From Macrostomum lignano (lineage: Eukaryota): DNA of 31,052 bases. Under the pieces are notes generated by a model. It saw nothing but the letters and a program-made list of their open reading frames with translations. It ran no database searches and had not been told where the DNA came from. The stretch covers positions 1 through 31,052 of the forward strand of contig NIVC01002134.1 of NCBI GenBank assembly GCA_002269645.1. The letters run 5' to 3'. A program made the position numbers and the translations under genes. The stretch's first letter is position 1; each line of letters starts with the position of its first letter. This document shows positions 4,844 through 31,052 of this stretch, in pieces.

Positions 4844-5029
4844 GTCGATTCTTGTAGCTGAAAGTTTAAAAAAAAGTTTTTTTTCTTGAAACATGAACGA
4901 TAGCACTACATTTACGTCTACTACAAACACAAGCTTAGTCTTGAGAATCTAACTATAAAAAATATACTTTTTCAAATAATTAAACACAAAAAAGTGCTAA
5001 AATTATAATTTAAACGAATGCCGGTATCA

Positions 5030-5135: not shown

Positions 5136-5466
5136 TTAATTAGCCAAGTGCCAGTGTCCAAAGGGTAGCGAATTAATTGAACTTGTCCAGGATCGCTTCG
5201 TATCGAAGAAGCTTAGTGCAAGTTTTCTTTGTTGCATCAAAAAAAACTTTCTGTTTTCGAGAACGAATGGACTGCATGCGCGAAAACACAAGTTGTCGCT
5301 TGTGTAAGACTCTTAAATAGTCTTGATGCTTTAAACTGCTCTGTGCGGCTTTAGAAGCAGTACTGCTCCAGCTTTGCGACCGATTGAGACTGGAACTTTA
5401 AACGATTGCTGCTTAACTAGACCGGACCGGACTGGACCGGACCGGACTGGACCGGACTCCCCGCGC

Positions 5467-5498
<32 letters not shown>

Positions 5499-6230
5499 AC
5501 CACCACCGCCGCCACCACCACCACCACCACCGCCACCACCACCACTGCCGCCGCCCGCCCCCACACCACCGTGGGACGTATTTGTTGACAGTGTGCTTGC
5601 ATGGCTTTTGCGATAAACGCAGAGCATCAAGTCTAGCTGCTCGATTGCTCTATATTGCCAATTACTACCTCGAGATTGAAAATTGTCAATTTTTATTAAC
5701 AACTGATTAATAACGCGTGCGAACCAGTCATTGTAGGCCTCGGGAGATAACAGCATGTCACTGTTTGCAATCGTCTCATCAAATGATATTGTCGCAATGT
5801 TGGTATTAAAATAGACCGAAATGATCTCTTCGCTGCTCGAGCCATCGTTGTCGTCTGCTGCTGTTTTCGGTCGAAATAGTGTCACTTTCAAGTGAAAGCA
5901 GACTCTTATTAATAAACTGGGTGAGCCAATTTTTTCCAATATTTTAAATATTGGTTCTCTTAAAGACGCAATCAACTCGCCAGGAAGTAACTCGCCAGAG
6001 CTGTTGCCTTGTTGCTCAAGAGTGGGAGTAAATTCGACAAAATTTACCCGACCACGATGAGCTGACTCGCGCAAAGCGATGGACCACCCATCTGGTGGGT
6101 TTTCGATCAGGTTTTGCAGCGATCCGGTCAGTAATCGTTGCGGTGAAAAACAAGCACCATGCGAGTGAGCATGCAGCTCGGCTTGATTACTGAACTTTTT
6201 TCTGCAGATTTGGCATTGTGCACGCGGCAT
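5136..6230 (-). pseudogene. polB: Protein-primed family B DNA polymerase remnant: N-terminal region and extreme C-terminus only, catalytic core missing
   Basis: N-terminal part has a C2H2 finger (CQICRKKF..LHAHSH), ESAHRGR and IDNFQSRGSNWQYRAIEQLDL. The C-terminal part, read across frameshifts, is QDYLRVL..RMQSIRSRKQKVFLMQQRKLALSFFDTKRSWTSSINSLPFGHW*, matching the Polinton PolB tail K.ALS.FDDKR...LP.GH. No exonuclease or YxDTDS motifs are present. Confidence 0.82.
5420..5570. repeat. GC-rich microsatellite: 8x GACCG/GACTG pentamer followed by a (CCG/CCA)n tract
   Basis: Directly visible; translates as poly-Gly in the polB frame. Confidence 0.95.
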
Positions 6231-6453
6231 TGTGTGCACCTAGCTCGACAACGAGCGTATCGAGCATAATATTAATAGATGATCCGGTTTGTCATTTGCG
6301 GCTGTAAGAAAAATGATGATTTGGTTAGTTATAGGTATAGCTGACACGTTTACTATTAGAGAAAACAATTGGTAAATAAATAAAAAAAGACAAAATGTTT
6401 GTAAAAGAATGCATCGCAACTGCGATTTGACAGCAATTGTTTACTTGTTAAGT

Positions 6454-7011
6454 TTAGTTATTAACAGAGATTAAAAAATCCTTGACATGGTTAAGAATAT
6501 TATTCAATTCATGAGTGTTTTGAACGCCCATAATAACAAACTTTTTCGAAAAAAATATGTTACAAAAAAGCCTTGGTTTTGATGCTGATCTAACAGAAAC
6601 TGCTTGTGGGAAATTTTCTGCATCGTATCCAACCAGATAATTCGAATAGTAGCCTGCATATCTTTTTAGACTAGAGAAACCGAATTTTGGCCAAAGATGA
6701 CCAATAAAGCCGACATAGGTACTGCTCTGAATTTTTACTGAATCAAAATCTACACAATTAATAGTGTCGTTGATAAATCGTAAAACTGAGACTATCTGAG
6801 AATTTGATTTACAGCCATATATAGTTAGTTTTCCTGCTGGATAAAGTTGGATTTTAGCATTTGAATAAATTGTCTTTAGCATTGTTGGTCGGCTTAGGAA
6901 TAGTTTGCAAAACCGGTTTCTGGTCTGTAGCTTCTGTTTGGTCTGCTTTAAATCAAATTTTTCAAACGGGTGCAGCTTCAGACTCGCAGTAACTATTAAT
7001 AGGACAAGTCG
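6454..7011 (-). CDS. Divergent TATA-binding-protein-like protein (both TBP repeats); 5' end lacks an in-frame ATG and begins at a splice acceptor
   Basis: The frame is open from 7011 to 6454 (185 aa plus stop), longer than the tracked ORF. It aligns by eye to the TBP core: IVTASLKL..FDLK ~ NIVATVTL..LDLK; RNRFCKL ~ PKRFAAV; IQLYPAGKLTIYGCKS ~ ALIFASGKMVVTGAKS; VKIQS ~ FKIQN; YDAENFP ~ YEPELFP; KPRLFCNIFFSKKFVIMGVQ ~ KPKIVLLIFVSGKIVLTGAK. Confidence 0.85.
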   Translation of the reverse strand, partial: RLVLLIVTASLKLHPFEKFDLKQTKQKLQTRNRFCKLFLSRPTMLKTIYSNAKIQLYPAGKLTIYGCKSNSQIVSVLRFINDTINCVDFDSVKIQSSTYVGFIGHLWPKFGFSSLKRYAGYYSNYLVGYDAENFPQAVSVRSASKPRLFCNIFFSKKFVIMGVQNTHELNNILNHVKDFLISVNN

Positions 7012-7220
7012 CTAAAACGGAAAATAAATAATAAGAAAAGTTAAACATGACTATACTATCGTAAATTCTAATATTAAATTACAAAACCTGGTTAGCGTAC
7101 AAGGAGTAGCAAACAATGTTTTGAGCTTTTCCCTAAAAAATAATATTTCCCTAGCCAAAAATTTGATAAATATAGTGGAATAAGTTAGTTAAAATTGGAT
7201 AAAATTAGTCAAAAATTTTG

Positions 7221-8419
7221 TTACTCATCATCAGAGCTGCTGTACGAGTCGTCCGATGAAGACACGCTAGCTGTAGTAGCGTCCGCAGCAGCACGCTTTA
7301 AAAATGCTGTCTCCTTGGACGCTACCCTGGTTCCAGAGGCAGGTGTACTCACCAAGATCTTTGCTGGTGGAGCCTCCACCCAGTCTGTGCCATCTGCACC
7401 AGCTTCGGCAGAATTGTTTTGCTGTTTTGCACCGCTGCGTTTTCGAACTTGCTTTTTAGGCGGTGGTTCAATAGAGGCTGGCGCTGCATTCGATGTAGTC
7501 GACTTCTTCGATACGGTGGTGGTAGACCGACGCTTTGCAGGTGACTTGGCAGGTGTCACCTGGCTTGAATTCTGCAGGCTTTGTTCATTTGCTTCTTCTT
7601 GCTCACAGGTAGATGTTGGGGACGGACTCCTGCTTCTAATTGCTGACTTGGTCGCGGGTAGGTGTGCAAGCACTCCCTTGAACATGTCGAGGCGCTGCAA
7701 CATGTTGTCGGAAGATTCTATGAGTGTCAGAGAGCGCACAGCGAATGTAATGCGCCAGACGAGGCAGCCTTTTGGACAATACAAGCTCGTTGCTTGCACT
7801 GTCATTTGGTAGGTACCGCTGACACCTTTGAAATCGGAAATGGACACCTCCTTCCCGTGTGGATGATCGTTGCTGATCCTGATTGTGGCACAAGGGTAAG
7901 CAGGCTTTATAGCCAGCCATTGTTGAGGCACAAACTCGAGGACGTCGTTAGCATGCTGATGAGCTGGTTTTGTTAGTCGTGCCAAGGGTCGAGCATCTTG
8001 AATCTCGTTCAACTTGACCGATAGACCTTTTTCGACTTGACTGCAAAACATTATATAAATTATGAATATAGTTTCCTAAAATTAATTGTATAAATTTAAT
8101 ATGGTGCTCACCGGAGAGAGTGGAAGAGTTCCTTATCGCAGCTGTCTGGATGAAATTGGACACTTACTGCGTCGCGAGAGTCGTGTCTGCAAGACGGATG
8201 ATCGAGCTCTGGCCTTTCTGCGATTCCACGAAAAAGCTCCATTGGAGCCTTGGTTTGCAATATAATTGGGTACCATTTTGTACACTCGATTGATGGTTTC
8301 CACGCAATAGATCGAAACTGGCAGGACGAACCAGTCGTGGTTGTAGACTGCTCTCCAACGTAAAAAATCGGACTCGAGTCGGAGCGTACAATTGACTCCG
8401 TCTTGATGCAAGCTGCCAT
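7221..8419 (-). CDS. Two-exon orphan gene, 375 aa (exons 8419-8112 and 8040-7221), with a Ser/Lys-rich, acidic low-complexity C-terminal tail
   Basis: A 71-nt AT-rich GTGAGC...TTTTGCAG intron (8111-8041) joins tracked ORFs 8108-8419 and 7221-8051 in phase 2. ATG is in gacATGG context with an upstream TATA box. Confidence 0.75.
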
Positions 8420-8497
8420 GTCTTACAAGCAATTGAATATAGTATTTCTTTTGCTGTAATGATTGAGCTCATGAAAAATTGACTATTTCGGGTCTTG

Positions 8498-8505
8498 TAT
8501 TTATA
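8498..8505 (-). promoter_or_regulatory. Canonical TATA box (TATAAATA) of the 375-aa gene
   Basis: TATTTATA on + strand, about 80 nt upstream of ATG 8419. Confidence 0.55.
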
Positions 8506-9109
8506 GCAAGCATTGCATGCTGTTTGTGAACTAGTAAACAAATTTAATTGTTGCGTGCTGATTAAGACATTGTTGCGTGCCAAAGGTGGCATAAGTTTCT
8601 AGGGTGGGTTGCATGATTAGGTCTAATTTTACGCAAATGTAGGTTGATATTTTATACAATAAAATTAATGAATCTTAGGCACACTAGTTATAAATTTGCA
8701 AGAGTAACACGATGGCAAGCGTTTAATAAGAAGACTGCTGGTTGCTGCTTCATTAGATTGGTTTTGTTCTCAAGTAGAATGTAATTAAAATATTTTGCGA
8801 CTTGAAAAATTAGCAATCTTGGATTTTAGAGTAAAAATAAGCTGCACGCGGTGCTATGAAATTAATTTATTGAAAGTTTTGCTTGCATGTTGGAATTTTT
8901 TAGCTCGCACGGTGACAAGAGATTGCTTGAGTAACCTATATATAGAGTGTTACTTTTCAAACAGAAAAATGTATAGTTGTAACTCAGCTTTTGCAGTCCT
9001 ATATTGAGCAGAAGCTATATAGAGTTACACTATAATGCTGCGACACGCAGCTTGTTGGGACTATAATGACTGCCGCTGCTATAACCGCATGCAGTCAGTG
9101 CAGTTGACA

Positions 9110-9920
9110 CACAAATGCTGTTTGGACTAAGCTAAATTACTGTGTTGAGACAGTTAAGCTGGACCACGGCTAAATCACTATTGATACGGTTAATTGCTAC
9201 TAGACCCATGGCTAAATCACTGTACGTTGAGACGGTTAAGCTGGACCACGACTAAATCGCTGTACGTTGAGACGGTGGTTAAGCTGGACCATGGTTATAA
9301 AACTGGACGGGTGGTTAAGCTGGACGACTACAGCTAAAATTACTGTTGAGTCAGTTATGCTAGACCACAGCAGCCAAATCACAGTTGAGGTAAAGCTGAC
9401 CATAGCTAATTCTCACTGTTGAGACGGGTGCTGCTGCTTGGCTCACAGCTAAATAACTGGACAGTTAAGCTAATCGGACTACAGCTAAATCCCTGTTGAG
9501 ACAGTTGCCTGGACCACAGCTAAAATCACTGTTGAGGCAGTTAAGTCTGGACAACAGCTAAAATTACTGTTGAGACAGTTAAGCCTTGACTATAGCTAAA
9601 TCATCGTTGAGGTAGTTAAGCCTGGACTATAGCTAAATCACTGTTGATGCAGTTTTAAGCTAGACCACAGCTAAATCATACTGCTGAGGCAAAAAAGCCG
9701 GACCACGGCTAAAAACTGTTGGGGCAAAAGCTGGACCACAGCTAAATCATACTGTTGAGGCAAAAGCTGGACCACAGCTAAATCATACTGTTGAGGCAAA
9801 AGCTGGACCACAGCTAAATCATACTGTTGAGGCAAAAGCTGGACCACAGCTAAATCATACTGTTGAGGCAAAAGCTGGACCACAGCTAAATCATACTGTT
9901 GTGGCAAAAGCCAGACCATG
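9110..9920. repeat. 36-bp tandem repeat array (GGCAAAAGCTGGACCACAGCTAAATCATACTGTTGA)
   Basis: Five nearly perfect copies at 9723-9902, progressively degenerate copies leftward to about 9110. Confidence 0.9.
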
Positions 9921-10175
9921 GCTAAAGAAACGTATGAAAAAAAATTATTTGCATGGATTAATAATTTTTGTTTAATGATGACTGTACAAGATATTGACTT
10001 TATATTGAATTAAATAATTTCAATGAATGGTGAATAAAATTGAAAGATTTTTTTAGAATAATGAATTTATAGAGATTATATTATTGATTACAGACTTGTT
10101 TGATATATACTAAAAGAGCAATTACTTGGACACATTGCTGGCAAAATTTTATGAAGAGTTAGAAAAAATGTCTTT

Positions 10176-11037
10176 TTAAGATAGGTCCCAATATTCAAAT
10201 ACTTGAGTTGTATTACAGGTCTTTGCTAATTCTACTTGGTAGAAGCCTGTGCTCATTTGAGAGACTTTTACAGACTTGATGTCCTTCTGTACAATAATTG
10301 GCGAGTTTAGCAGCGGTTGAACTTGGCTAGAAATAGCAATTGATGATGATGGTGTTTCAGTTGCTGTCGTTGGTTTGGTACTTGTAGGCTTACTGCAAGT
10401 TTGCTTTGTTGGGTCATTGTAGCTGGTTGGTGATGGTGGTGGTGGTGCATACTGCAGTTGGTCAGTTGGTCGTGGGTTCGATTGCTGCCTAATTGACTGA
10501 ATAACATCAGTTCTTGTGTAAATGCGATCTAGCTCAGTTGTCTGTCTCTCGACATGAATCGAGGTTACTCTGGCGAGAGATGTAGAATATGATGCTCTTG
10601 CAGCAGAATTGGATGTGGTGGTGTCGTGGCAAATGCGTTTGCACTGATCTGGAGGTGGCCGCGTGAAGAAACCATTCTTGAATGCTATAATAATGGATAA
10701 GATGAGGGAAATTTGGTATAGGTGCATGTATACAATGTATATAGAAACTGAACTAGCAGAGAATCAGTCTAAACAGAAACCGAACTAGCAGACAATCAAT
10801 CTAGAAATTCTGAACTAGCAGAGTATTAGTCTAAACAGAAACCGAACTAGCAGACAATCAATCTAGAGACTGAACAAACAGAGGATCGGTCTAAACAGAA
10901 ACCGAACTAACAATCAATCTAGAAACTAAACTATAGCGAACAGTCAATCTAAAAAAGAAAACTGAACTAGAGTAGGTGATTATCTTACCTTGTTTAACAT
11001 AGCGCTCGGCCAATTCCTGCTGACGTGATCGCTTCAT
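10176..11037 (-). CDS. Two-exon orphan gene, 185 aa (exons 11037-10989 and 10684-10176), Thr/Pro/Ser-rich
   Basis: ATG 11037 (MKRSRQQELAERYVKQ), strong donor AAG|GTAAGA and acceptor ccattattatag join in phase 1 into tracked ORF 10176-10727. A (TA)n TATA-like tract lies at about 11125-11136. Confidence 0.55.
10745..10970. repeat. Degenerate ~60-bp tandem repeats (AGAAACCGAACTAGCAGACAATCAATCT-containing) inside the predicted intron
   Basis: Three to four recurring units are visible. Confidence 0.8.
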
Positions 11038-11447: not shown

Positions 11448-11516
11448 GCGTGCACTTGGAATTTCAGACTGCGTGCACATGGAATTTCAGACTGCGTGCA
11501 CATGAAATTTCGGACT
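11448..11516. repeat. Three 23-bp tandem units GCGTGCACATGGAATTTCAGACT (candidate subterminal repeat)
   Basis: Units at 11448, 11471 and 11494. Confidence 0.9.
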
Positions 11517-12064
11517 CTGCCATTTTTTTGGGCCTGTACTTACTATGTATTTCGCCATAAGGAAATCGGCTTTGTGTCAAAAAAACGTATACTACTAGCA
11601 GGATATGGCGGATGCATGTGGGGAGGTGAGCTGGTTTGCCTTTTTCACAGGTCAGTTCAAATCTCCCTGCCGCCTGGTTGAGGGCTTGAATTTTCCGATT
11701 CGAGAACTCTTTGAGAAGCGGCCTAGAGCTGTATAGAGCTCTCCGCTCCGCTGGATGGCAACTTTCCCGTCCCATTTCCATTCCTAGCTTGCCTTCCCAC
11801 CGTTCGTCTTTCCCTTCTCTCCAACGGACTGCTCGTAGCTCCGAAGCGATAATCAGACACAATATGATAGACTACTCAGAGGCAAGACTTTTCTCACAAT
11901 TGCTGTAGAGTCAAGACTTACATTAAAGTGTGTGTAAAGCATTAGCGATCTCTCAAAAGTGTTGTTTTAAGAGGAAAGCACTAACCAATTAGCTTATAGC
12001 AAAGTTGTTTCACCCCCCCCCCCCACAATCTATCTGTGATGACGTCGAAGATTGCTTAGTTATT

Positions 12065-12665: not shown

Positions 12666-13502
12666 TGTCACGTTATTGGCGTAGTGGCTAGGACCCTTAA
12701 AAGGGCCGTTTAACGGGAATCGTCGTAAGTCGTTGTAGTCCCAAAATGAATCGAAGTCAACTCTTGTAAAGTGGATTGTGTAGCGGAGCACTTGGCGTAT
12801 AAGGGCAGGAAACTGCCGTAGTTAATTTATTTTTGAGATCAATATTCAAACGGGTTAATGTCAATACAGAACTTATCGCACTTTGGGACACTGGCGGCTG
12901 CAACAATGGTTTTAAAGGTAATTTAGAATGACGAAGTCGAGTAGCAGGCGAAGGATACAATGGCGACGCAACGTAGTGAGTGATGGCGATGAGCACAGTG
13001 GAGGCAGTGAGTAGTAAGTAAACAGGCAGATACCTGGTAAGTAACGGTGAGAGTGGCGTTAGCCGTGGCAGTACACAGTGGAGTACGGAGTGTAGACAGG
13101 CTGGCCCAGACAGAGGAGCCGTGGCGAGAGATAAGGAGGCTCGAGGCAGCCAAGAGAGAGAGAAGGAAAACGAGAGCCAGACGCCCGAAGCCAGAAGTGA
13201 GGAGGGGGCCCCAGCCCGCCGCCAGGCGGGGGGTTAATAAAGAGCGCAGAAGGGTTAGCATAAAACACGGAGAGTTTTCATTGGCTGGCGAGAGAACTTG
13301 AAATCATCGATCGTGGTAAAATTTACAGACGAACGCAAGGCCTACCAAATACACAGTGAATTAGCAATTGATACAGATTATTTGCACGCTACTACAAGTA
13401 ATCGTTAAAATAAACTATTGGAGAAACTTAGATGAGACATTGCGAGGGAAACTATAGTCCAACGGCCCTTTTGCGGGACCACCTTAAACTAGCAACGTCA
13501 CA
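12666..13502. mobile_element. 837-bp insertion with TG...CA ends and imperfect inverted termini (solo LTR or non-autonomous TIR element)
   Basis: Interrupts the 35-bp satellite mid-unit. TGTCACGTT versus the reverse complement of AACGTCACA match 8/9. A perfect subterminal inverted 12-mer AAAAGGGCCGTT / AACGGCCCTTTT is present. AATAAA at 13236. No clean TSD. Confidence 0.6.
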
Positions 13503-14990: not shown

Positions 14991-17284
14991 TCACTTTCTT
15001 GGTAGCGTTGCTGGCAGTTTGGACTGAAATTCATTTTAATATTGGTGAATTGAGAAAGTATGTTTGATAATGTAGTGCACAGATTTTTTATCTATCTGTT
15101 CACTTTAAAAATTAAAAAAATACATCAGAATAAGCTAATAGCTACCTTCTGTATTGACGAATGAAATCGTTTCGTTGACTTGCGCAGAATCTGAAAAGCA
15201 CAGAAGAAACGATGGAAGCAAATAATATTGAATGATTTAGTGGATTTTACGTTTTAAAGTGAAACATATCCAAAGAATGATGGGTTGTAGCCTACAGGTT
15301 AAGAGCGTCGGTCTCACGACTGAAAGGTCGGGAGTTCGATTCTCGACCCACTCCTTGAGTAAGACCGAGCTGTACAATAGGTGCCAGCATTAGCTGGGTA
15401 ATTGAGGGTGTGTGGAGCCCCCCAGTCCTTGGTCTGAACAGCCGTACGCAGCCTTCAGATGCGCCATGCAATAGCTGTGTCTGAGCTTTCGGTTACACAT
15501 CTGCCTATTAGTGTGTAATCAATCAGTATTCAATTAAAAATGATTATAATGACCATTGTCGTTATTGTGGTTATTGTCGAGAAAAATGATGACAATAAAC
15601 TGAAAATGAAAAAAAGATGCAACCAAAGAGCCAGAAAATTACCAGCATGTTTCTCTCCACAATGAGTCGCCTAACAGCTGCCACATCGCTGTACCGATCG
15701 TCTTCAACGCTGACGCTGCTGCCCCACGGCAAGGTGCGCGACGTCTCCGGATGCGGAGCTCCGATGACGGCCAGCGGTGATGGCAGCACCCGCTGACCCG
15801 GCTGCGGTGCCTGCTGCTGCTGCTGCAGCTGCTGCTGAATCGGCAGCAGGAATTGGTGCACAGCGATGCCGAAGCGTTGCAGATCGGCAGCCACGGCACT
15901 TTTACGATCATTGAGCTCGTCAGCCGTGTAACTGTCCGCTTTAGCCAACACAGGGACCAAGTTCACCTGCGCGAGGTTTTAGTTTTATGGATTGCACTAA
16001 CAGTCGCAATAAATCAGAAACAAACTTGGAGCTCACTTTAAGACAGTCATCGCATTAGTAGTCCTATTAGTGCACAACCATTTGGCACACTGTATATATT
16101 ATTAGATTATGCTTTTCTTGCTACTCCTAGTAGAGAATTAAAACGAGCTAGATTTCCGATACCTAAATGTGCACCAATACTTTAGATTAGCTGACGCACT
16201 TTAAAATTTTTATACAACCGGCGAGAGGCATTACTGCCCATTCCAGATACGTACGCGGTCATACGTGTACGCACAGGCACACACTCACACAGGAGTGTAC
16301 AGCGGCCCTAACTTTACCTATCGTTAGGCATGTACAATTCACTGTGCCTTGGGGGTCGGCTCAAGGCCGTTAATTGCTCGAGCAGAGCCAAGCCGAGATT
16401 CCAATTCAGCTCGTAGCTCCGAATTAATGTGACTGCACTTGGAATCGAGCCTGGTCCGAGTGCATATCCTATAAGAACGCCGCGATAGACCACTAGGCTA
16501 CGCGGCCACCTTTTCTGAGCATTGCTTGCTAGAATAAGTAAACTACATGTAGCAGAACGAGTTAAAAGCTTTCTACCTTGTCCTCGAGGTACTTTAAAGC
16601 CAAAGCGTCGCATCTGCGCAGGCCCCGGCCTCCAATTGGCGGCAGAAAGTACAAACAGCAGTGGACTCGTTCGTCCTCTTCCGGACGAAAATCGAATTGA
16701 TTGACGGCTCTGGTGTTGACATAGCTGGTCACCTGTAGGTTTTTAGAATTTACAGTACTCATATTTATATTAATTTTAACTTTTTAATGATTCGAACAAA
16801 TACGAACCTGTTTGGCTAAGAAATCAGCAACCGAAGTCCATGGGCTTCGGTTGCTTTCGCCAACAGTGTAATTAACTGTACTCATCAGTCGGACCGTCAG
16901 TCTACGATTGTTGCCGCTTAGAAACGACTGTTGTTGCTGCTGCTGCTGTTGCTGAGTTTGTGATTCGTTTAGTGACTCAATTGTTGAGCTGGAGTCACCT
17001 AAGCAGAGCTTCTCTTTCAGCACGCTGACGGGAAACTCTCTGGATGGGTCGGCCCCGGCAGTGACAGCCACCGCGCGATCTTTGTCTTCCCGTAGGCCTG
17101 CGGCTCTCACTCCGAACAGAGTCTCAAGGAAGGTCACCTTTCCTAAGCCGTCCTCGCCAATTGCGAGCAGGTTGAAGCAGGCCGGCTTGCTTAGCAGGTA
17201 GTCGATGGTCTGCGACTCGAGGCACTGGCGCAGGTAGGCAGCTTCTTGCTGGCCAGTTTGTTGCGTTTTCGTACCGGATTCCAT
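14991..17284 (-). CDS. Divergent septin (SEPT6-group-like), 344 aa; exons 17284-16808, 16732-16577, 15966-15643, 15190-15146, 15023-14991
   Basis: FNLLAIGEDGLGKVT (P-loop), RVHCCLYFLPP, VNLVPVLAKAD (G4), LAVIG..RTLPWG..VED (septin unique element). All GT-AG junctions are phase 0. The last two short exons are less certain. Confidence 0.85.
15282..15540 (+). mobile_element. tRNA-derived SINE-like insert in septin intron 3
   Basis: A box TAGCCTACAGG (15288-15298), B box GTTCGATTC (15334-15342), degenerate cloverleaf with a 6-nt anticodon loop, then an unrelated body and A-rich end. The 3' boundary is approximate. Confidence 0.6.
16200..16507 (-). mobile_element. Second tRNA-derived SINE-like insert in septin intron 2
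   Basis: Minus strand begins GGCCGCGTAGCCTAGTGG (A box), with a variant B box GGCTCGATTCC and a CCCAAGGCAC core-like motif. The 3' boundary is approximate. Confidence 0.5.
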
Positions 17285-17862
17285 CTCTTTAGTAACAACT
17301 ATAGGGTGAAGAATTTCGCTCTGTCTTAGGCAAGGACACTCAACAAAGGAGGTTTCAGCTGCGTTAATATTTAACACAAAATCTCAGTTTGTTTGTTTTA
17401 GCGACTTCTTTTTCGGCCTATACTAATCTGTTCGGTCTTTCTGGCTTCTCTGCTCCTTGCTTCTGAAGCCTGGTACTAGCGTAGTTTAATCTGAATCATC
17501 GTTTTTTTCACAGTTCCCACGATATTTTTCTTTTTATTCGCAGCAGCAACTGCAGCATACGATAGGTCTTAAATACAAATGTAAACCCACTAACGCACAA
17601 GTTGCAAGTGGCTGCGTATTGGCTTTCGTAAGCAACTCTAGTATGCAAGATTTATTATTAGATGGTCTAAAGACTCTGCTTGTAGGCAGTCACGGTGGGA
17701 AAATGCTACAGGCTGAAAAAACTTCAAGACCTTTTTTAACGTATTGTAGCTAAATACTCGTAATTAGCCTGTAAATTATCCATGAGCGAATTAACCTGAT
17801 AAGGAATGTAAAAAATCAAAATGAAAAACAATTAAATCGAAGATATGACTTCTGTACTTTAG

Positions 17863-17868: not shown

Positions 17869-17970
17869 GGCTTATGAAATCCGGAAAATCATTGAATCAT
17901 TTAGGAGCATTTTAATTATCTTTCCAACACCATTAGTGAGTTATTTGAATCAAAGTTTCACAATGCCGAT

Positions 17971-20900
17971 TCACTTCACCTCGAAGACGCTATTGTTGGA
18001 GTTCCCGCCGCACTTCTCGCCCGGGTTGCCGCCGCAAGCCACGTTGCAGTTGGCATTGGCGGTGTCGCCGCTGTTTCCATACTGATTGCCGCAGCCGCAG
18101 ATTTTGCCGTTCTTGACGCCGAAGTAGGAAAACTTCTTGGCCTTGCAGATTTTATTGCACTTCCACACAGTCATGCGGTTGGACACCATGGCGACGGTGA
18201 AGTCCGGATACTCCGGGTCGTCCAGGTAACAGCCGAGGAATCCTTTAATGATCGAATGGGCGATGTATGTAAAGGTTCGATACAACTACTTATAGTAGTA
18301 GCTGTGCGGTAACAACGTCTTTCTATATTGCTGGCAAATGGGTACTTAAATGAGCGTGCATTAAACAATCGTTCAGTCGCCGTACGCCTTCCATATTTGT
18401 CAGTGTACTTTAAAAACTAGCCATTTGCCAGCGATGTCCATTTACGTCAAGTCACATGAAGCAATGATTATCTCGTATAAAAAATTAAATTTTATCGTTA
18501 AGCTATCTAAATTAAACAAACAAAAAACAATCTTACCTGGATGCGGCTTCACACAAATTCGACGAGTAACAGTTCGACAAGGGCATTCTGAAAATTTTAA
18601 GTTGTTTGCAGCCAAAATTGAGGTTTTATTTAGCGCTTCAGTATCTATAATCTTACTCAATGATACTTTATCATCTTGACTTTAGCTCCTTGAAAAGGCT
18701 GGCTTCCGAAGTAGGTAAGGTACATGTGACTGTCTACTTGTGAGTCAAACTTCGATTACCCATTTCGATAAACACCGCTTGAGAAATTTTTCAAGTCGTT
18801 AAAAATGTCTGCTACCTGGTATATTGATAAGTCAAAAGAGTACTCACTTCCTTTCAGCACTCTGGTCAGACCGCCACGGCTTGAGGGGAAGGCACTGAAG
18901 CTTAAATCGCCTCGGACACCTCGTCTGATGAGCTCCATGACCTGGGCGGAGAGTTTCATTAAGTAATTATTTGACTACATAATCTGAAATCAACCCTGCG
19001 GTCTCTCTACAAGCTCATAGAAAATCAATTTTACCTTATTGCTGACTTTGGAGTGAAGCCTAGAAAACTGTCCGTAGGTGACTTTGGCCAACTTAGCAAA
19101 GTTCTTTCCGTTCGTGCCGCACTGCCTGCCGCTGGCTACCGTGAAGAATCGGATTCTCTTGGCCTTCAGCTTGGCCTCCACGGCGCCCATCTTGCGCCTG
19201 TCCTTGGCTGAGGCGTCCGTGAACAGAATCATGACGGAGTTCGGCTCGGCAGCCTCGGCAGCGTCCAGAGCGCCCGACATCGCGAACTCGGGACAGTCGC
19301 CACCTCCTCTGGCCTTCAGCTTGTTGAGGAACCGATAGATCTTCGATGCGCTGGTTGTCTTCATCAGCTTCTTCTTGTAGGGATCGCCGAATGTGGCAAC
19401 GACGAAGTCGTCGAATCGCTTATTGGCAGCGATGATTTTGCGGATGTTGTTCTTCACGGACTTGATGACTCTGCCCATGCTGCCCGTAGTGTCAATGACG
19501 AACACCAGGGAGCCGAGGCTGCGATGGTCTGGCGCCGGCTTGCAAGAGCAGGTGCGGTAGGGCACGAACTTCTCCTTGGTGCCGAGCCGGCAAGCTGAGA
19601 ACGGATAGGATGCCAGATTTGATGCATAAACTATCGACGCTACTTAACTATTCTCGTTTATCTATCTTTATTCCAAACTATAAAATTCCATAAGTTCCCT
19701 AATTCCCTACAATGCTAACCGGTTATGCTTCAAATTCTATAAGAGCTGCTCGTAAGTGTGTTACAAGTATATACACTGTACAATAAATGTTATATCGTAT
19801 GTATCTCTCCTCACTTCCATTCATACAAACGTATATTAGACAGACGGATAATTGAATCCAATGGCGTCGCCATGGATTTTATGGTGGGGGGGGGAGACAA
19901 AGCCAAGAATTTTATTGATACATCTACATGTACGACCTACATGACTAAATTCCTACGTGTACATTATTTTCTGAGTCGGTGTTGCCGGCGCTCCTTTTTA
20001 GCGCCGCAGGCACTCATTTTAGCGCCGCAGGCACTCATTTTGGTACCGCAGAGACTCATTTTAGCGCCGCAGGCACTAATTTTGGCGCCGCAGGCACTAA
20101 TTTTAGCGCCGCAGGCACTCATTTTAGCGCCGCAGGCACTCATTTTAGCGCCGTAGGCACTAATTTTGGCGCCGCAGGCACTAATTTTAGCGCCGCAGGC
20201 ACTCATTTTAGCGCCGCAGGCACTCATTTTAGCGCCGCAGGCACTCATTTTAGCGCCGTAGGCACTTATTTTGGCGCCGCAGGCACTTATTTTGGCACCG
20301 TGCTTTCTCACCCTGCAGCAAAATTATTGATTTCCATACAAGGTTGGGGGGACAAAGCATTGGCATGACCCCCCCCCCCTTATCTTTTACTGGGGGGCAT
20401 GCCCCCCTTGTCCCCCCCGGTGGCGATGCCCCTGCATGAATCTTTTATTTATCAAAAATGCATTCTAAACGTTGCTTTACTGTATTACAGGACTTGCAAG
20501 CTGAAAGAATTACTTTAAAGACGACACGGAAAAACTTTCGAAAAATGGGCAGTGGAAAGAATACTCACTGGACGCTTCCAGCTCAATCCCCGTAGAGTAG
20601 ATGTCGTTTCTCCAGCTATTTCCGCAGTAGTTGGCCTTGTCGCCGGTGCACTGCATCCTGCACTCGATCTGGCTTCTCTTGCCGTGCTTACCGTAGCTGT
20701 TGCCGCACCAGCACTGCTTGGCAAATTGTACACCAAAGTACCTATAGCCGAGTCGTTTGCACTTTAAGCGGCACTTCAGGACAGACATGTCGCCAGTGGC
20801 AGCAAGCTTAGGCAGGTCGCGTTTGCGAGAATCGACAAAGCAGCCCATGTGCTTCATGCCCGGAGCTGGAGTGGGTGAAAGGTTCCGAAAAAATTGAATT

Positions 20901-23900
20901 TTAACCAACGATCGTTTGTATTAAACCACCCGATCTGTAGTAATCTCACCCGATGGCCGCTCAAGCTCAATTCCGGTTGTGAACACTTCGTTTCTGTAGG
21001 CTCCACCGCATTTCGACCTCTTGTCTCCCCGACAGGGTTTGCGACACGAGCTCTTCTTGGCTCGACCGAAAGCTCCGTAGTTATTGCCGCACGTGCAATG
21101 ATTTCCATTCTGCAGACCAAAGTAAACGTAGCCTCGGCTCTTGCAGAATTTCCAGCAGTATGGCTTGCTTGCCTTATGACCGGCATTGTGTACTAAAGGC
21201 AGGTCTCGCTTGGCATTGTCAACAAAACATCCAAGACGTCTGACACCCTTGGCTATAAAAAATGAATGCGTTGAAGATAATTTTCTGTGTTTAATCTCAT
21301 TTTATATGCGATGTCCAGAGGCTTAAAAAACTCAATAAAAATGCACATTTACCAATTGTAGCCACCTCCAAGCCTGTCGTGTAAACATTGTTTCTCCAGC
21401 CTCCTCCGCAGTAAGTGGTCTTGTCGCCGCTGCACTGCATTTTGCACTCGGTGTTCGGTCTGATTCCGAATCGGCCATAGTGATTGCCGCAGAAGCAATG
21501 GTTGGAATATTGCACTCCGAAAAACTTGTACTTGTGCTTTCGACAGAACCTGTAGCACTTGGGCACGCTCATGTGGCCTCTTGGAGCTTCGCGTCTCAGA
21601 TCTCGTTTCGAACTATCGACAAAGCAGCCGAGGTATTTCATTCCCGGCGCTAAACATTGTCAAAAAAATGAAATGAAAATTATATAGTACCAATATATCG
21701 TGAAAAAAGTGTTTTTCGAGCTTTCTTTTACTCAATCACTTACTCGAAGCTTTTCTGGTCTTGAGTCCGGTGCTGTAGACGGAGTTCCTCCACGGTCCGC
21801 CGCACTTCTCTCGCCTGTCGCCCTTGCACGTCATTTTACATTGCTTGTTGCTGACTCGACCCAGAGAGCCGTAGCTATTGCCGCAGGTGCAGTAACTGGC
21901 GTATTGCAAACCGGCGTACTTGTAGCCAGCACGCTTGCACAGCTTGATGCAGTAGTGGCTGTTGGCTTTCACTCCAGCGTTCACCACCTTGGGCAGGTCG
22001 CGGGCTGCGTTGTCAATGAAGCAGCCAAGATAAGCCGAGTCTGTGGACAAAAATCATAGTTGCTGTCGTAAATGATAGCTCGTTTCAGTAATCGATATAA
22101 ATTATAGGCATTGCAACACTAAGTAATCTTACCTTTTGGCCTGGCCGAAAGACCAGTTGTGAAGATGTCGTTTCTCCAGCCTGCACCGCAGTAAGTGGTC
22201 TTGTCGCCGCTGCACTGCATGCGGCACTCGTTCTTGTCGCGAAGACCGTACCGTCCGTAGTGGTTACCGCACCAGCACTGACTTGCGTACTGCACTCCAA
22301 AGAATCTGTACTTGAGCTTTCTGCACAAGTTGTAGCACTTTCCGACAGTCATGCGGCCCTTGCCAGCTAATTTGGGTAGGTCGCGAGCTTTAGAGTCGAC
22401 GAAGCAGCCGAGATGTAGCATTCCTGGTGCTAAAAGAGAGCGATATAGTTCAAAGCTATCATCTGTTTGTTTTTTTACGAGAGTTTGACAAGTACATCAC
22501 CGTGTAATTTCACATTTTGCAAGTTTTTAACAAAGCAGCATTAAATTTGTTCGATGTATGATAAAGTATTGAATAACAACTGCGAGGGTTTAGTTTTTCT
22601 ATATGCCTTAGATACGAGCGTATTTGTAATTTAGTGTTGTGATTTATAAGCTGAGCGTGAAAATAAAGATTGAGAATACATTGGCAGCTCATGCTACAAC
22701 GTAAGAAGAAAGCTAACAATGGCGACGAGGCTTTCCCCACTGGACACACTAGAAGATGGTGAAGATTCGAATAGGTAGATTTGAAGAGTCGAAATTCACT
22801 GCAAATTTCACGACTTCAAGGAGGAAAAGCAGAAAGACGCATTTCTAGCGCTTATTGGCAAGCGCATGTGTAACCTTCTCGCAGATGCAGCCGTGCCAGA
22901 CGATACTGAGAAGAAGTCCTACGATGACATGAAGACCTTGCTGAGTGACAAGATAAAATCACTGAAATCTGTAATCGCCTACCGATACGTATTTCGCAGG
23001 ACAGGGCAGGAGCCCAACGAGGATACCTTGTCGAACAGTCGTAGACTGAATCAACAGGCCGACGACTGCGATTCCAACGACGTCAAGGACCGTCTTCGCG
23101 ACCAGTTTATATTTGAACTTTCGAACAAAGATAAGATATTCTACGCAAGCTATTGGCCGAGAAACGTGCGAGACTAACTCTGGAAAAGGTCACTGCTGTT
23201 GCAACAGCGTGCGCATCTGTGTAAAGAGGTGAGGACATGGCGGACTCAGGCCTATTACAGATGCGCCAGTCAGGGGGAAATCGACCCCGTCACCAGAATT
23301 GGGCAATGAAAGCAGCCTGAAAGAGCCTACCGTTGAGAAGCAAGAAAACAGATATCTTGCTTCTGCTGTGGAAAGCAAGTAAACATGAAGAGGGAATGTC
23401 GAGACAAGCTGCTCAAGTGTGGATATTGTAGAAAAGTGGGACATCTCAAAGCCGTCTGTAAAGCACTAAACCCCCAGACATCTTCGCAAAGATGTAAGCC
23501 CACAAGCGGGTCATTTTCTATCAGACTTATGTTATGCATGGGGAAGTTCGGAACGATGTCGATAAGCAGCTAGGGGACGATGGAGATCAAGTGTTCTTAT
23601 TTCAAGGGTACAGTCAGAGAATCTACAGAAAGTTGCGCATTAACGGGACCGATTTCAAGACGGTTTTCAATACCGGGGCAAATCCAGATGCCTCGCTAAT
23701 TTCTAGAAAACTGTTCGATGGTCTAACAGAGAAAACCGGAAGTCTAATACCGGACAGAAATTTCAACGATTACCAAGGAAGAGTTGTTCCGATATGTGGA
23801 CAGTCGATTGTGAACGTGCAATTTCAAGGCAAGACGGCAGCCTCCCAATATTCATGGTAGACAATCTAAACGCTCCCAGTATCTTTAATGGCCTCGAGTG

Positions 23901-26900
23901 GATGCACGCACTGGAGCCTCATCTGAACATCTTTTAAGTTGCTCAATTTTGAGCGCACCTCACGTTAAAGGATGGTGCTACACCATTGTTTTTTTTAAAC
24001 AACGACTAATACCAGACAGCTACGGCATGTGTGATGCTGTTAAGCTGGAACTGGAACGGTTGGTGGCGGAGAAGATCTTAATGCCCGTGGATCAGAGCGA
24101 ATGGTCTACTCCATTCGTGACTGTAAGAAACCCGAATAGAAAGATTTGTTTGCGTGGGGATTATAAAGTGACAGTAAATAATTGGTTAAACGACATGGTC
24201 TCTACCACACCAAGCAACGAGGACGTCCTAAGCCAGTTGGACGGGGCAATGTTTTTGCCGTCATCGACTTCACCAATGCTTACCTGCAAATTCCGTTGGA
24301 TGAAGCCTCTGCAGTGATACTAACTTTGACAACAATATTCTTTTATTGAGAGAACTGAGACTCAACACTCTTATGTTCTTTTTCTGTATCGAATGGAAAA
24401 CCGATATGAACCTGTAAATTTACCTAAGAGGAGTGCGAGGGTTTAATTTGTCTATGTTCTTTGTCCCAGGCTTTTGTAAAGTAGTGCTGTGTTCTAAAAG
24501 CTGAGCTACAGTCAGAGGACGCCCAAGAACGTTAAAATAAAAGTTGAGCCTACATTAAGCAGCTCATGCTAAAACGTAGGAAAGCTAACAATAACTCACT
24601 ATTAGCCTTCTTGGACCTCAGTCCGGTTGTGAAAATCTCGTTTCTCCAAGTGCCGCCGCACTTTCTTCGTCGGTCGCCTTTGCACACTGCTGAGCATGAC
24701 GACGCCTTTGCTCTACCATATCGACCGTACGTGTTTCCGCATGTACAGTGGTTGCCGAACTGCAGTCCAAAGTACTTGTAACCCTTGCCTCTGCAGTACC
24801 TCCAGCAGAAGGCTTTGTTAGTCTTGTGTCCAGCAGCGTACAGGTGGGGCAAGTCTCGCTTAGCTGTGTCGACGTAGCAGCCGAGCTTGCGAACTCCAGC
24901 TCCTGAAAGGTGGTGTTGCTTTGAATTTTATTCAAAATTCAATGGATGTCAGCACGTGCTCAAATGTCTAGCACTCATCACATTAATAAAAACAGTTTTA
25001 TATTTTATTGATATTATGTACAAATTGAAATTTCAGTGTTGGTAGACTTTTTATTAAAAAATATTTACCTGTGGTAGCCAGCTCCAAGCCGGTAGCGTAC
25101 ACACTGTTTCTCCAGCCTGCACCGCAGTAAGTAGTCTTATCGCCACTGCACTGCATTCTGCACTCCGTGTTCGGTCTGATTCCGAATCGGCCATAGTGAT
25201 TGCCGCAGAAGCAATGGTTGCCATATTGCACTCCGAAGAACTTGTACTTGTGCTTTCGACAGAACCTGTAGCACTTGGGCACACTCATGTGGCCTTTTGG
25301 AGCTTCGCGTCTCAGATCTCTGGTGGCTTTGTCGACGAAGCAGCCGAGGTACTTCAGTCCCGGAGCTGTTAAAAACAACGATATTAATTGGAATTTATCT
25401 CAAAGATCATTTAAAATTAACAATCTAAAAGTTCATTATGTTAGTTTTGTGTAAAAGAAGACTTACTTGACACCTTTCTAGTCTTGAGTCCGGTGCTGTA
25501 GATGGAGTTCCTCCACGGTCCGCCGCACTTCTCTCGCCTGTCGCCCTTGCACGTCATTTTACATTGCTTGTTGCTGACTCGACCCAGAGAGCCGTAGCTA
25601 TTGCCGCAGGTGCAGTAACTGGCGTATTGCAAACCGGCGTACTTGTAGCCAGCACGCTTGCACAGTTTGATGCAGTAGTGGCTGTTGGCCTTCACTCCAG
25701 CGTTCACCACCTTGGGCAGATCGCGGGCTGCGTTGTCAATGAAGCAGCCAAGATAAGCCGAGTCTGTGGACAAAAATCATAGTTGCTGTCGTAAATGATA
25801 GCTCGTTTCAGTAATCGATGTAAATTATAGTCATTGCAACACTAAATAATCTTACCTTTTGGCCTGGCCGAAAGACCAGTTGTGAAGATGTCGTTTCTCC
25901 AGCCTGCACCGCAGTAAGTGGTCTTGTCGCCGCTGCACTGCATGCGGCACTCGTTCTTGTCGCGAAGACCGTACCGTCCGTAGTGGTTACCGCACCAGCA
26001 CTGACTTGCGTACTGCACTCCAAAGAATCTGTACTTGAGCTTTCTGCACAAGTTGTAGCACTTTCCGACAGTCATGCGGCCCTTGCCAGCCAATTTGGGC
26101 AGATCGCGAGCCTTAGCGTCAACAAAGCAACCCAGATGGAGCATGCCAGGTGCTGCAAGTGAATTAACTTATTTAGATTAGCGCGTTCGACTTTTATAGT
26201 ACGCGATGTTGTTTTTACTTTGGTTTAAAATCTTAGTGGGTAAAGCTGGAGAATCTCACTTTTGTATCGTCTGGACCTGAGTCCGGTTGTGAAAATCTCG
26301 TTTCTCCAAGCACCGCCGCACTTTCTTCTCCGATCGCCTTTGCACACGGAGGAGCAGGTAGACGATTTAGCCTTTCCGTACCGACCGTACGTGTTTCCGC
26401 ATGTACAGTGATTGCCAAACTGCAGACCAAAGTACTTGTAGCCCCTATTTTTGCAGTACCTCCAGCAGAAGGCTTTGTTAGTTCTGTGTCCAGCAGCGTA
26501 CAGATGAGGCAGGTCTCGCTTAGCTCTGTCGACGAAGCAACCGAGTTTTCGGACCCCAACGCCTAAATAAAGCATTATAGATAATGCGAGAGCGATGTAA
26601 TTCTCTTTTTCTCTTCGGTCAAAGTATGCGTATGTGTAATTCATTTATGAGAAATATTCCTCCTTACTAGAAGTAGCAAGATCCAGTCCAGTAGTGTAGA
26701 TCATATTTCTCCAGGATGCACCGCAGTAGGCAGTTTTGTCTCCTGTGCACTGCTTTCTGCATTCGATTTGTGAACGCCTACCATAGCGACCGTAGTGATT
26801 GCCGCACCTGCACTCGTTGCCATTCTGAATGCCAAAGAATCGCTTTTTCTTGCCTCTGCAAAGCTTATAGCACTTGGCGGCGCTCATGGAGCCTGAGCCA

Positions 26901-29900
26901 CCCAGCACTGGAAGGTCGCGAGCAGTCTTGTCGATGAAACATCCTAACTTTGTCATGCCCGGCGCTGAAATGAAGTGTTATGAAAATAGAGGTGAGATCA
27001 GGGATAGAATATTGGATTTAGCGACGATGAGTCTAGCTTCTAAGCTAGACTTCTTGACACGAGCTGGTAGAATAGTTGCGGATAGTTGATCTATAATAAA
27101 ACCACATATAAAAGCTTCGTGACCAAGACGTTTTATCATTCAAAAACCCTACCAACTATCTCTCAATTTAGAAGCTTTGATTGGCATAAGATCATCATTC
27201 CCTCTCTTATCTGAAAGAGAAGTTGATGATGATTTTAGGCGCTTGATATTTTGGTGACTCAAAATGAATTAAAAAGCTGAAATATATGGTTTTTTTAATG
27301 CTTTTGAATTCAATTTTCACTGGCTCATATTGAAATATAACTTTAACGACGTTAGCTATTGTCATGAATTTAATGGCAAGCCACATATCTTTTCTTTTGT
27401 GGCGCCGTGACTTAAGTTATTAAGAAAAATCAATCTTACTTGAAGCAAGCGGTCTGCTGACTCCGGTTGTGTAGACGGCGTTTCTCCATGGACCTCCGCA
27501 GTAGGTGCTCTTCTCGCCCTGACAGAGCGATCGGCAGCTCTTCTCTGAAGCGCGACCAAACAGGCCGTACGAGTTGCCGCACGTGCAGTGGTTGCCGTTC
27601 TGCACACCAAAATAGCGATAACCACGTGCTTTGCAGGATTTGTAACAGTAATTGCGGGTAGTCTTTGAACGAGAGTTCAATAGTAAAGGCAGGTCTCGCT
27701 TTTTGTTGTCAACGTAGCAACCAAGATACCTGACTCCTTTAGCTGAAAAGATGTTAAGTACGAGCTATAATCGGTGGTCTATGTTCGACTAAGTTTAGAT
27801 CCATTAGATCCATTACACCAAATGGTACTGCATAAAACGCTTATAAAATAATTTTTCAGATCTTTCCTGTTTTGATAATACACTAATAGACTAATCATTC
27901 AATTCTCGGAAATAGCTTGTTATATGTATGAGATATATATATATATTCTCTTGAGCTTACCCGGAGGCCAGGCTCTCGCTACGACATAGTGTCCAAAGAC
28001 TTGCACTTCGCACAGAGTTAGCGGCACCTTATTTCTAGTCTCAATTCGAACGACCCGTCCAATCAGATGGCACGAGAAAGTTCGCACGGAGAAAGCTGCC
28101 GACGACCGGTACGAGGCGCACTCGCGACCGTCTACCTTCACAACGAAATTATTGAGTCGCTTCGCACAACAGTCCTGTCTGTTGTGAATGGTGATCTCGG
28201 TGATTCTGGCGAGCTTTTTAGTCTTAGCCTGCCACCAGGCGCCTTTGGCAGTTTTAGTGTGGGTGCAGGAGTGCTTGAAGAAGTGCTGGTTAGTGTTACC
28301 GTCAATGGCTCTAATGCAAGGGGCCTTCCATGTTGTGGAGTGCTGCGAGCAGTGAGACAGTGGCAGCTTGGCTGAAAGGATTTTTAAGTATTTTTTACTT
28401 ACTTAGTCTATGAAAATACAAGCGTAATTTAGTATAAAGGAGTTATCATCTTACTTTCTCCCTGATTTCCAAGTCCAGTAGTGTAGACGCTGTTTCTCCA
28501 AGAAGCGCCGCATTTCTGTTTGCTGTCTCCAGAGCACCTCTTGTTGCACTCCGATGCCCTCCTACCTCCGTGTTTCCCATACTCATTGCCGCACCAGCAC
28601 TGGTTGCCGTACTGCAGTCCGAAGTAGGCCATGTTCTTCTGTCTGCAAAGCTGGTAGCACTTCTGAATTCTCATCTTGCCTTTGCCGGCAAGCTTAGGCA
28701 GATCTCTGTTGGCGCTGTCAAGGAAGCAGCCGATGTAGCGAAGCCCTGGCACTGCAATTAAACAGCAAAACATAAAATAAATGGCATAAGTGCAAATAGG
28801 ATGCGATTAGTACAGAGATTACTGGCAGAAAGTCTTACTAATATCGTTCATTGTTAGGCCAGTGGCATAGACGCTGTTCCTCCAGGACGAGCCGCAATAC
28901 GTCGATCCGTCACCTCGGCACCGCATACGGCACTCTTTCTTTGGCCTAACGCCGTACCGTCCGTAAGTGTTGCCGCACCAGCATTGGTTAGAATGTTGCA
29001 CTCCAAAGTACAAGTATTTCTTGGCACGGCACAGCCTATAGCAGACGGGTATCCGCATCGAGCTGCCCCTGCCAGCCAAAACTGGAAGATCTCGGGCCTT
29101 TCGATCGATGTAGCATCCGAGAGATCGAAGTCCTGGTGCTGGAAAAAGTCAAAAATGAAAATATACTCGTATAAGTTGACACAGAATCCAAATTAGTTGG
29201 CATTATAGATAGCATCGCAGAAACCTACTTAGGATTTTTGGAGGAGTTACACCGGTAGCGTAGACGCTGTTTCTCCAAGAGGCTCCGCAATAAGTCGACT
29301 TGTCGCCGCTGCAACGCTTTCTGCACTCAGTGATGCGTCTGACACCGTATCGACCGTAACTATTGCCGCAGAAGCATTGGTTGCCATTTTGAACACCAAA
29401 GTACATGTAGCTCTTGCCTCGACAGAGTTTGTAACACTTTGACACTGTCATGCGACCAGATCCAGCATATTTACGCAAGTCTCTGCTGCCTTTGTCAAGA
29501 AAGCAGCCAAGATGCCTGATACCCGGCACTGAAATCGATTTTCAAATTTTTGAAGCAAATAACACAGTGAAAAAACATCAAATTAAGACAGAATATTTTA
29601 CAACTTGAATTACATTGCCTCGAAGACCTCAGTCCCGTAGAGTAGACAATGTTTCGCCAATTTCCACCGCAAAAAGTTTTGCGATTGCCGCTACAGCGCT
29701 GCTTGCACTGCGACATTGGTTTCGCTCCGTAGCGACCGTAGCTGTTGCCGCACCAGCACTGCTTTGAGTGCTGCACGCCAAAATATGCGTACTTGGCCCG
29801 CTTGCAGAGCTGATAGCACCTCGGCACGGTCATGACGCCCGAGCCCACCAACTTAGGCAGATCGCGGATGGCGTTATCAACAAAGCAGCCAATCTTTCTT

Positions 29901-30984: not shown

Positions 30985-31052
30985 CTAAAAGTGTCAGAAT
31001 TTATCAATATGAAAATTTTTTTATTAGCTGGTAATTTGGTAATTTCAAAAAA

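Follow-up and report, generated by a model that had tools for sequence, protein, structure and literature searches.

The window analysed here is a stretch of 31,052 nucleotides from Macrostomum lignano, and its bases 1 to about 11,600 are, judged from their gene content, a Maverick/Polinton-type element, the window's copy of which is cut off by the contig start. The start of a retrovirus-like integrase was found at 130-618, and the integrase with its chromodomain was recognized in a related locus (L074; PF00665, E 4.5e-8). A protein-primed family B polymerase was identified in a sister copy (PF03175, E 4.2e-20); the window's copy is without most of this gene, with a junction near 5334-5337. 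The polymerase-loss junction belongs to the window's own subfamily, which is abundant, and RNA contigs have loose ends there. Terminal inverted repeats of ~105 bp, 96% alike and starting with AGTAGTA, lie at both ends of another copy (C753). A P-loop ATPase-like ORF had no family match, adenain gave a weak match (PF00770, E 0.04), and no Pfam match to a capsid was obtained in the element copies. The coordinates of the main features are summarized in the table.

Tandem repeat arrays occupy 9100-9930 and 10730-10930 in the right arm, between the putative SSB promoter and the terminal repeat, and a short insert with an open frame interrupts the satellite array adjoining the element at 12690-13490. 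Further on, exons at 15570-17380 are presumably septin-like, and the minus strand of 17900-31052 carries one or more host genes with many short Cys-rich repeat exons, which we take to be WSC-like, and a vWA-like exon.

Table. Features of the element copy in the window (a slash marks a splice boundary; SL, spliced leader)
Feature	Position	Strand	Basis
Zinc-finger N-terminal part of the protein-primed polymerase gene	5334..6230	-	Pfam; sister copies
Acceptor before the polymerase gene, SL-joined in run X7	6302..6325	-	RNA contig; sequence
TBP-like exon/ORF, 185 codons + TAA, without start codon	6454..7011	-	frame analysis, Pfam, profile
Splice acceptor, pyrimidine tract + AG at 7013-7012, phase 0	7012..7045	-	sequence, conservation
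Predicted alternative intron 2, 341 nt: SSB tail, stop, 209 nt intergenic	7012..7352	-	conservation
Out-of-frame ATG, TTG in 5/29 copies	7046..7048	-	copy comparison
SSB exon 2 in the read-through form, ending with TAA 7223-7221; acidic tail	7221..8040	-	annotation, predicted structure
Phase-0 donor TTG/GTGAGT (7353/7352), invariant K-x-L/V-S	7347..7355	-	conservation; gene model P0156
Intron 1, 71 nt, GT-AG	8041..8111	-	spliced in 3/4 runs
SSB exon 1, coding from ATG 8419	8112..8419	-	sequence
TATA-like box TATAAAT, ~80 nt before the SSB ATG	8498..8504	-	sequence; similar motif in sister subfamilies
Terminal inverted repeat, begins AGTAGTA	11493..11598	-	sequence

The TBP-like frame and the gene upstream of it

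On the minus strand, the sequence at the TBP-like start reads TTTCCGTTTTAG and then CGA CTT GTC, the first codon being at 7011 and the stop TAA at 6456-6454. The TAG formed with the AG of the acceptor is an in-frame stop, pyrimidines make up 24 of the 30 bases 5' of this AG, and TTTAAC near 7045-7040 resembles a branch point. The initial annotation had described a frame that has no start codon, opens in phase 0 directly after an acceptor and has its first in-frame ATG at 6882, all of which was confirmed by our frame analysis, with 6531 as the only other in-frame ATG. ATG 7048 lies in a different frame and opens just 28 codons.

The frame matched PF00352 at 31 bits (E 2.2e-7; cut-off 22.9 bits), and a profile of nine TBP-like copies matched solved TBPs (yeast, human) over positions 16-177, including both repeats. 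Aromatics are retained at four Phe-like positions and both Asn positions are altered, these six being what we take to be the TATA-binding residues of TBP; TATA-binding activity of the TBP-like protein is putative. Translation has to begin at 7011 or upstream of it, since the 43 codons preceding Met 6882 have been conserved between subfamilies. Homologue searches with the frame as query gave no match. The distant TBP-likes are stand-alone proteins of 184-190 aa, whose Met sits 2-3 residues before the same strand as in the TBP-like frame, and upstream Mets are also present in the TBP-likes P0001 and P0002. The annotation is without the element's genes that lack a start codon (0 of 10 looked up were present in the protein collection), and scans of the loci gave no usable result, with one weak match (L091).

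The gene upstream is likely a gp2.5/CP312R-like SSB with an OB-fold core, whose tail can be exchanged for TBP, as indicated by its fold matches and by the acidic tail that follows the donor; single-stranded-DNA binding is predicted from the structural model. The model had a mean pLDDT of 55.7, with the core mostly at 70-90 (a model of exon 2 only was poor, pLDDT 44), and the top 11 Foldseek matches were CP312R, gp2.5, Enc34 SSB and two related phage proteins (best fold matches: E 1.7e-6; Z 12.0, rmsd 4.5, 185 aligned). Pfam and PDB sequence searches gave no name for this protein, and the Atlas leads, DUF2738/DUF5871 at 0.92-0.93, were carried by 10-15% of cluster members. The TATA-like box probably marks the SSB promoter.

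Conservation of the acceptor and of an in-frame donor

At least 40 element matches were obtained in a DNA search of the genome, and a protein search with the TBP-like frame gave 83 matches, 26 of which span all 185 codons with no stop. Six subfamilies with ~40-46% identity were distinguished, all having the same layout at the TBP start; they are mutually related and represent about five deep lineages, and the distant set, 20 loci retrieved, forms the five subfamilies other than that of the window. Bases 6990-7050 were identical in 20 of the 20 closest loci, window included, and in 19 of the 20 distant loci the TBP start shows an Arg codon behind a pyrimidine tract and YAG, the 20th being without this region. 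As a motif by itself the acceptor is not beyond chance (a generic pyrimidine plus YAG pattern had 29 matches vs 21 ± 4.4 expected, the TBP acceptor not among them), whereas its conservation is.

These comparisons bear on another suggestion of the initial annotation, that a 2-nt deletion near 6995-7005 had disconnected ATG 7048 from the frame. The idea fails because all six subfamilies share the acceptor layout, and the identity of the closest loci is likewise against it. In 5 of the 29 distinct copies, some of which keep the 185-codon frame open, TTG replaces ATG 7048, whose spacing also varies. In L019, an early-exon frameshift connects ATG 7048 to the remaining frame at the cost of the first strand, and a second frameshift follows. 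Intact copies with an ordinary in-frame ATG, which had also been envisaged, are not the general case; an ATG 11 codons upstream of the TBP start was found in L055, L056 and L081, and at this position it is in frame in L055 and L081 but out of frame in two further members of the subfamily, L060 and L065.

We then considered the donors in the SSB gene. Donor 8112/8111 is joined to 8040 in three of four runs, and since it is in phase 2 and thus out of frame with 7011, as had been noted initially, it was rejected as a partner of the TBP acceptor. Donor 8168/8167 is in frame with 7011, yet it was dropped because no matching donor exists in the distant loci. The phase-0 donor at 7353/7352 is conserved in all six subfamilies: this donor and the TBP acceptor were kept in 29 of 29 distinct copies covering both (33 of 35 loci, four of them being repeats of a place), and GTRAGY occurred at the same L/V-S position in 13 of 13 distant loci, namely those of the 20 with an unshifted acceptor, 259-619 nt before it. 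K-x-L-V-S is invariant within a poorly aligned region, and donor-type codons were used there in 6/6 representatives vs 1/14 other Val-Ser pairs; the chance of this is 5e-6 by a naive codon-frequency product and ~1e-3 by hand with the Ser class counted once, the lineages being related.

Joining 7353 to 7011 would produce an in-frame SSB-TBP protein of 332+185 = 517 aa. Gene model P0156 uses donor 7353, spliced to a nearer site in the SSB tail, and the annotated SSB form (P0153, 375 aa), which was also seen in RNA contigs, reads through it; no SSB-TBP fusion was present among 4 protein matches and 9 cluster members. The SSB tail past the donor is 42-50 residues long with an acidic end in the subfamilies aligned, and stop-to-acceptor gaps measure 124-490 nt. 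The unrecognised cis exon that the initial annotation listed as an alternative thus exists, with a donor which that annotation had overlooked and which is kept in six subfamilies; a 7353-7011 join was not seen.

Spliced leader joining and the starts of the polymerase and kinase genes

The SL of Macrostomum lignano, the species to which a protein 100% identical to the SSB gene product is also assigned, ends in AUG. The host is thus a flatworm with an AUG-ending SL (PMC8629364), which the model of the initial annotation had set as its condition, and five of the 18 SL-like genomic loci that we read continue with G/GTAAG (ending GCATG/GTAAG) and a U-rich stretch, the arrangement expected of SL RNA genes. 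Rfam gave no SL RNA in three loci, which were later shown not to be SL genes. Many other genomic SL matches (L032-L036, L042, L044 and L048) are SL-like pieces in recurring flanks and not SL RNA genes, perhaps another mobile family or retrocopies.

RNA contigs of four runs were mapped to 5200-8800, and eight runs in all were inspected at 7011, with a depth of about 3-35; the runs were taken as RNA by guess, none being recorded as RNA, and X1 had no intron joint. In run X7 a 23-base loose end was observed at 6302, which, reverse-complemented and extended by the shared G, is identical to the 3'-terminal 24 bases of the SL as published (PMC8629364). This 23-mer has 58 exact genomic matches, none of them beside a polymerase start. 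Since the loose end is the SL tip, the element family is SL trans-spliced at 6302/6301, the acceptor following TBP, as observed in a single contig of a single run from a sister subfamily (18/18 alleles of the C84/C2373 subfamily vs 1/18 of the window's subfamily). The SL AUG at this acceptor is out of frame, and ATG 6230, 71 nt further, is the gene's own start.

At 7011, neither an SL join nor a cis join was found in the low-depth contigs of the 8 runs. Contigs in X1, X2, X6 and X10 run unspliced through 7011, and donor 7353 is traversed unspliced by contigs in X2 and X7; the second batch of runs stopped short of donor 7353, within a range where a loose end at 7011 would have shown. Because contigs drop rare variants, the lack of a join at 7011 is weak evidence, which probably counts somewhat more against an abundant cis product than against the SL. 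Contig ends at 7023, considered as a sign of the SL, instead reflect that copies have either T or C at 7024. Loose ends were also present at 8433 and 8486-8528 in X1, X2 and X6, and the similarity of the 8433 end to the 3' end of the dUTPase points to either a chimeric contig or a rearranged copy.

The clearest candidate for an SL-donated AUG is not TBP but the polymerase gene of the sister subfamilies. In two subfamilies this gene opens with a genomic ATG (M-P-R-x-Q-C), which an out-of-frame acceptor precedes by 71 nt in one and 14 nt in the other. In the other four, a phase-0 TTCCAG/CC is located exactly at the ATG codon (three subfamilies) or a few codons upstream of it (the fourth), so that ATG-less loci (L079, L087, L088 and L089) stand against those with ATG (window 6230, L081 and L082). 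The SL AUG on the ATG-less acceptor would yield the same M-P start. In L079 a stop directly precedes the polymerase acceptor, the next Met lies 107 residues beyond the first Cys, and a GTRAG donor was not found within 1,500 nt of the acceptor. Among the four ATG-less subfamilies, two carry a Met 15 or 36 codons upstream that is not conserved; the polymerase acceptor might also be reached from the SSB donor by a long cis join. Trees did not resolve the number of ATG/acceptor swaps (p-AU 0.11).

The deoxynucleoside kinase gene, absent from the window's copy, is a separate gene in four subfamilies, and an acceptor-like site lies 2-36 nt before its ATG, in mixed phases, in 5/5 subfamilies carrying the kinase. 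In L057 (740-2119, minus strand) and L058 the TBP-like frame continues in frame into the kinase, giving 460 aa. Another acceptor-like site, at window 4858-4885 on the minus strand and 14 nt before the dUTPase ATG, is possibly a further SL site.

A proposed dual-use acceptor and its relation to known systems

The initial annotation had proposed that the SL donates the start codon of the TBP-like frame. This model is partly supported: it yields an in-frame product of 186 aa and the SL is joined at the next acceptor, so that it is plausible; it is unproven at 7011, where 8 runs gave no SL join, and incomplete. Since the conserved donor at 7353/7352 is in frame, the SL is not the sole in-frame route to TBP.

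We tentatively favour, with a confidence slightly short of even, a dual-use acceptor at 7011 within an SL-resolved operon, in which an SL route and a cis route are both in frame. A single transcript initiated at the TATA promoter of the SSB gene would extend across TBP in the direction of the polymerase. If cleaved behind the SSB stop, giving the 375-aa form, it would leave a downstream piece with an acceptor and without a donor; this piece would take the SL, whose AUG would start a stand-alone TBP-like protein of 186 aa. In the uncut transcript, donor 7353 would be joined to 7011, and the acidic SSB tail would be replaced by the TBP domain. The model builds on the observed sequence layout and its conservation, the splicing of intron 1 and the SL at 6302; from these we infer both junctions at 7011, the cleavage site, translation of the products and a role in the element's own transcription. 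Acceptors common to cis- and trans-splicing are frequent in parasitic flatworms (PMC12582326); however, according to the same source cis-splicing is rare at operon-resolving acceptors, which counts against dual use, as do the negative contig results at 7011, the SL at 6302 being seen in a single contig, the failure to find an SSB-TBP fusion, the nearer splice of P0156 and the upstream ATGs or Mets of some copies. To the broader proposition, that these elements have SL-resolved operons, that starts of core genes have been handed to the SL (TBP-like in six subfamilies, polymerase in four) and that a cleave-or-splice choice switches the SSB tail, we give an even chance.

We regard as unlikely a cis-only reading, in which the SSB gene is alternatively spliced and the TBP frame is simply its final exon, with the SL at 7011 absent or noise. 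The conserved in-frame donor would fully account for phase 0, the conserved P-x-K-x-L before it aligns with the start of the first TBP strand, an upstream cis donor normally blocks trans-splicing (as cited in PMC8629364), and in adenovirus two coding exons are joined by splicing to give pTP (PMC11304566). However, the read-through SSB form, annotated and found in RNA contigs, leaves the downstream acceptor without a donor, and the SL did appear at 6302; moreover, no cis junction was seen, although it should survive contig cleaning better than an SL tip. We consider it quite unlikely that only the SL acts at 7011, with TBP as the second gene of the operon and the donor serving a mini-intron in the tail, as in P0156 where donor 7353 is paired with an acceptor there, or U1 binding that limits cleavage. 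The operon-like series of acceptors along the element, the SL at 6302, the ATG-to-acceptor swap of the polymerase and the size of the stand-alone TBP homologues agree with it, but every subfamily has the donor in frame with 7011, tail acceptors vary in position, and the tail motif is kept as protein in most subfamilies. A broken gene, cut off from ATG 7048 by a deletion, or a start at Met 6882 or a non-AUG codon is very improbable, since L019 and the similar 14-185 matches of C1154 and C2271 in its favour are opposed by the lost strand and second frameshift of L019, the variable ATG 7048, the conserved residues before Met 6882, the stop-free matches over 185 codons and the acceptor conserved in all six subfamilies.

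SL-donated start codons are already known in flatworm host genes; no report of an SL-donated start codon or of SL use by a virus or Maverick was found in the open-access literature. If true, a mobile viral element would depend on host-specific RNA processing for its polymerase and a transcription factor, which would limit its host range, as the start-less genes would be expressible only in hosts with an AUG-ending leader. The exchange of ATG and acceptor in the polymerase gene would offer a natural experiment on the retention of the AUG in the flatworm SL, and replication would be linked to transcription by an SSB that acquires a TBP domain through splicing.

The element resembles Mavericks/Polintons (adintoviruses; PMC8502044) in its chromodomain integrase, protein-primed PolB, PLA2-like and pX-like genes, P-loop ATPase, weak adenain match and terminal inverted repeats; unlike them, it encodes a TBP-like protein and an SSB whose gene is spliced, and most subfamilies add a deoxynucleoside kinase. 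In the accessible text of PMC8502044 splicing is not mentioned and the single mention of TBP is in a legend that concerns elements from hosts other than animals, and the corresponding parts of the Polinton papers (PMC8502044, PMC11161782 and 10.1101/2023.08.22.554363) contain nothing on SL or such genes. As in adenovirus E2 (PMC7851563, PMC11304566), an SSB and the terminal protein/polymerase belong to one unit, whose downstream frames are reached via splicing. Adenovirus uses cis leader exons for this, whereas in the element the unit would be resolved by the SL and contains an SSB of the gp2.5-like kind. The adenovirus DBP belongs to a different protein family from gp2.5-like SSBs. African swine fever virus CP312R and phage T7 gp2.5, the top fold matches, share the acidic C-terminal tail with the element's SSB at only ~10% identity, and to our knowledge neither has a TBP isoform. 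In the alternative operons of C. elegans, one transcript gives either a cis-spliced fusion or, by cleavage and trans-splicing, two mRNAs; the nematode SL is not known to end in AUG, so that the downstream gene depends on a start codon of its own. Schistosoma has documented cases of genes started by the SL AUG (PMC9851317, citing Cheng et al. 2006). With such flatworm host genes the TBP-like and polymerase frames share the AUG-ending SL, the phase-0 acceptor and the lack of a genomic start codon, and they differ in being genes of a virus-like element and, for TBP, in the conserved cis donor that is also available to the acceptor.
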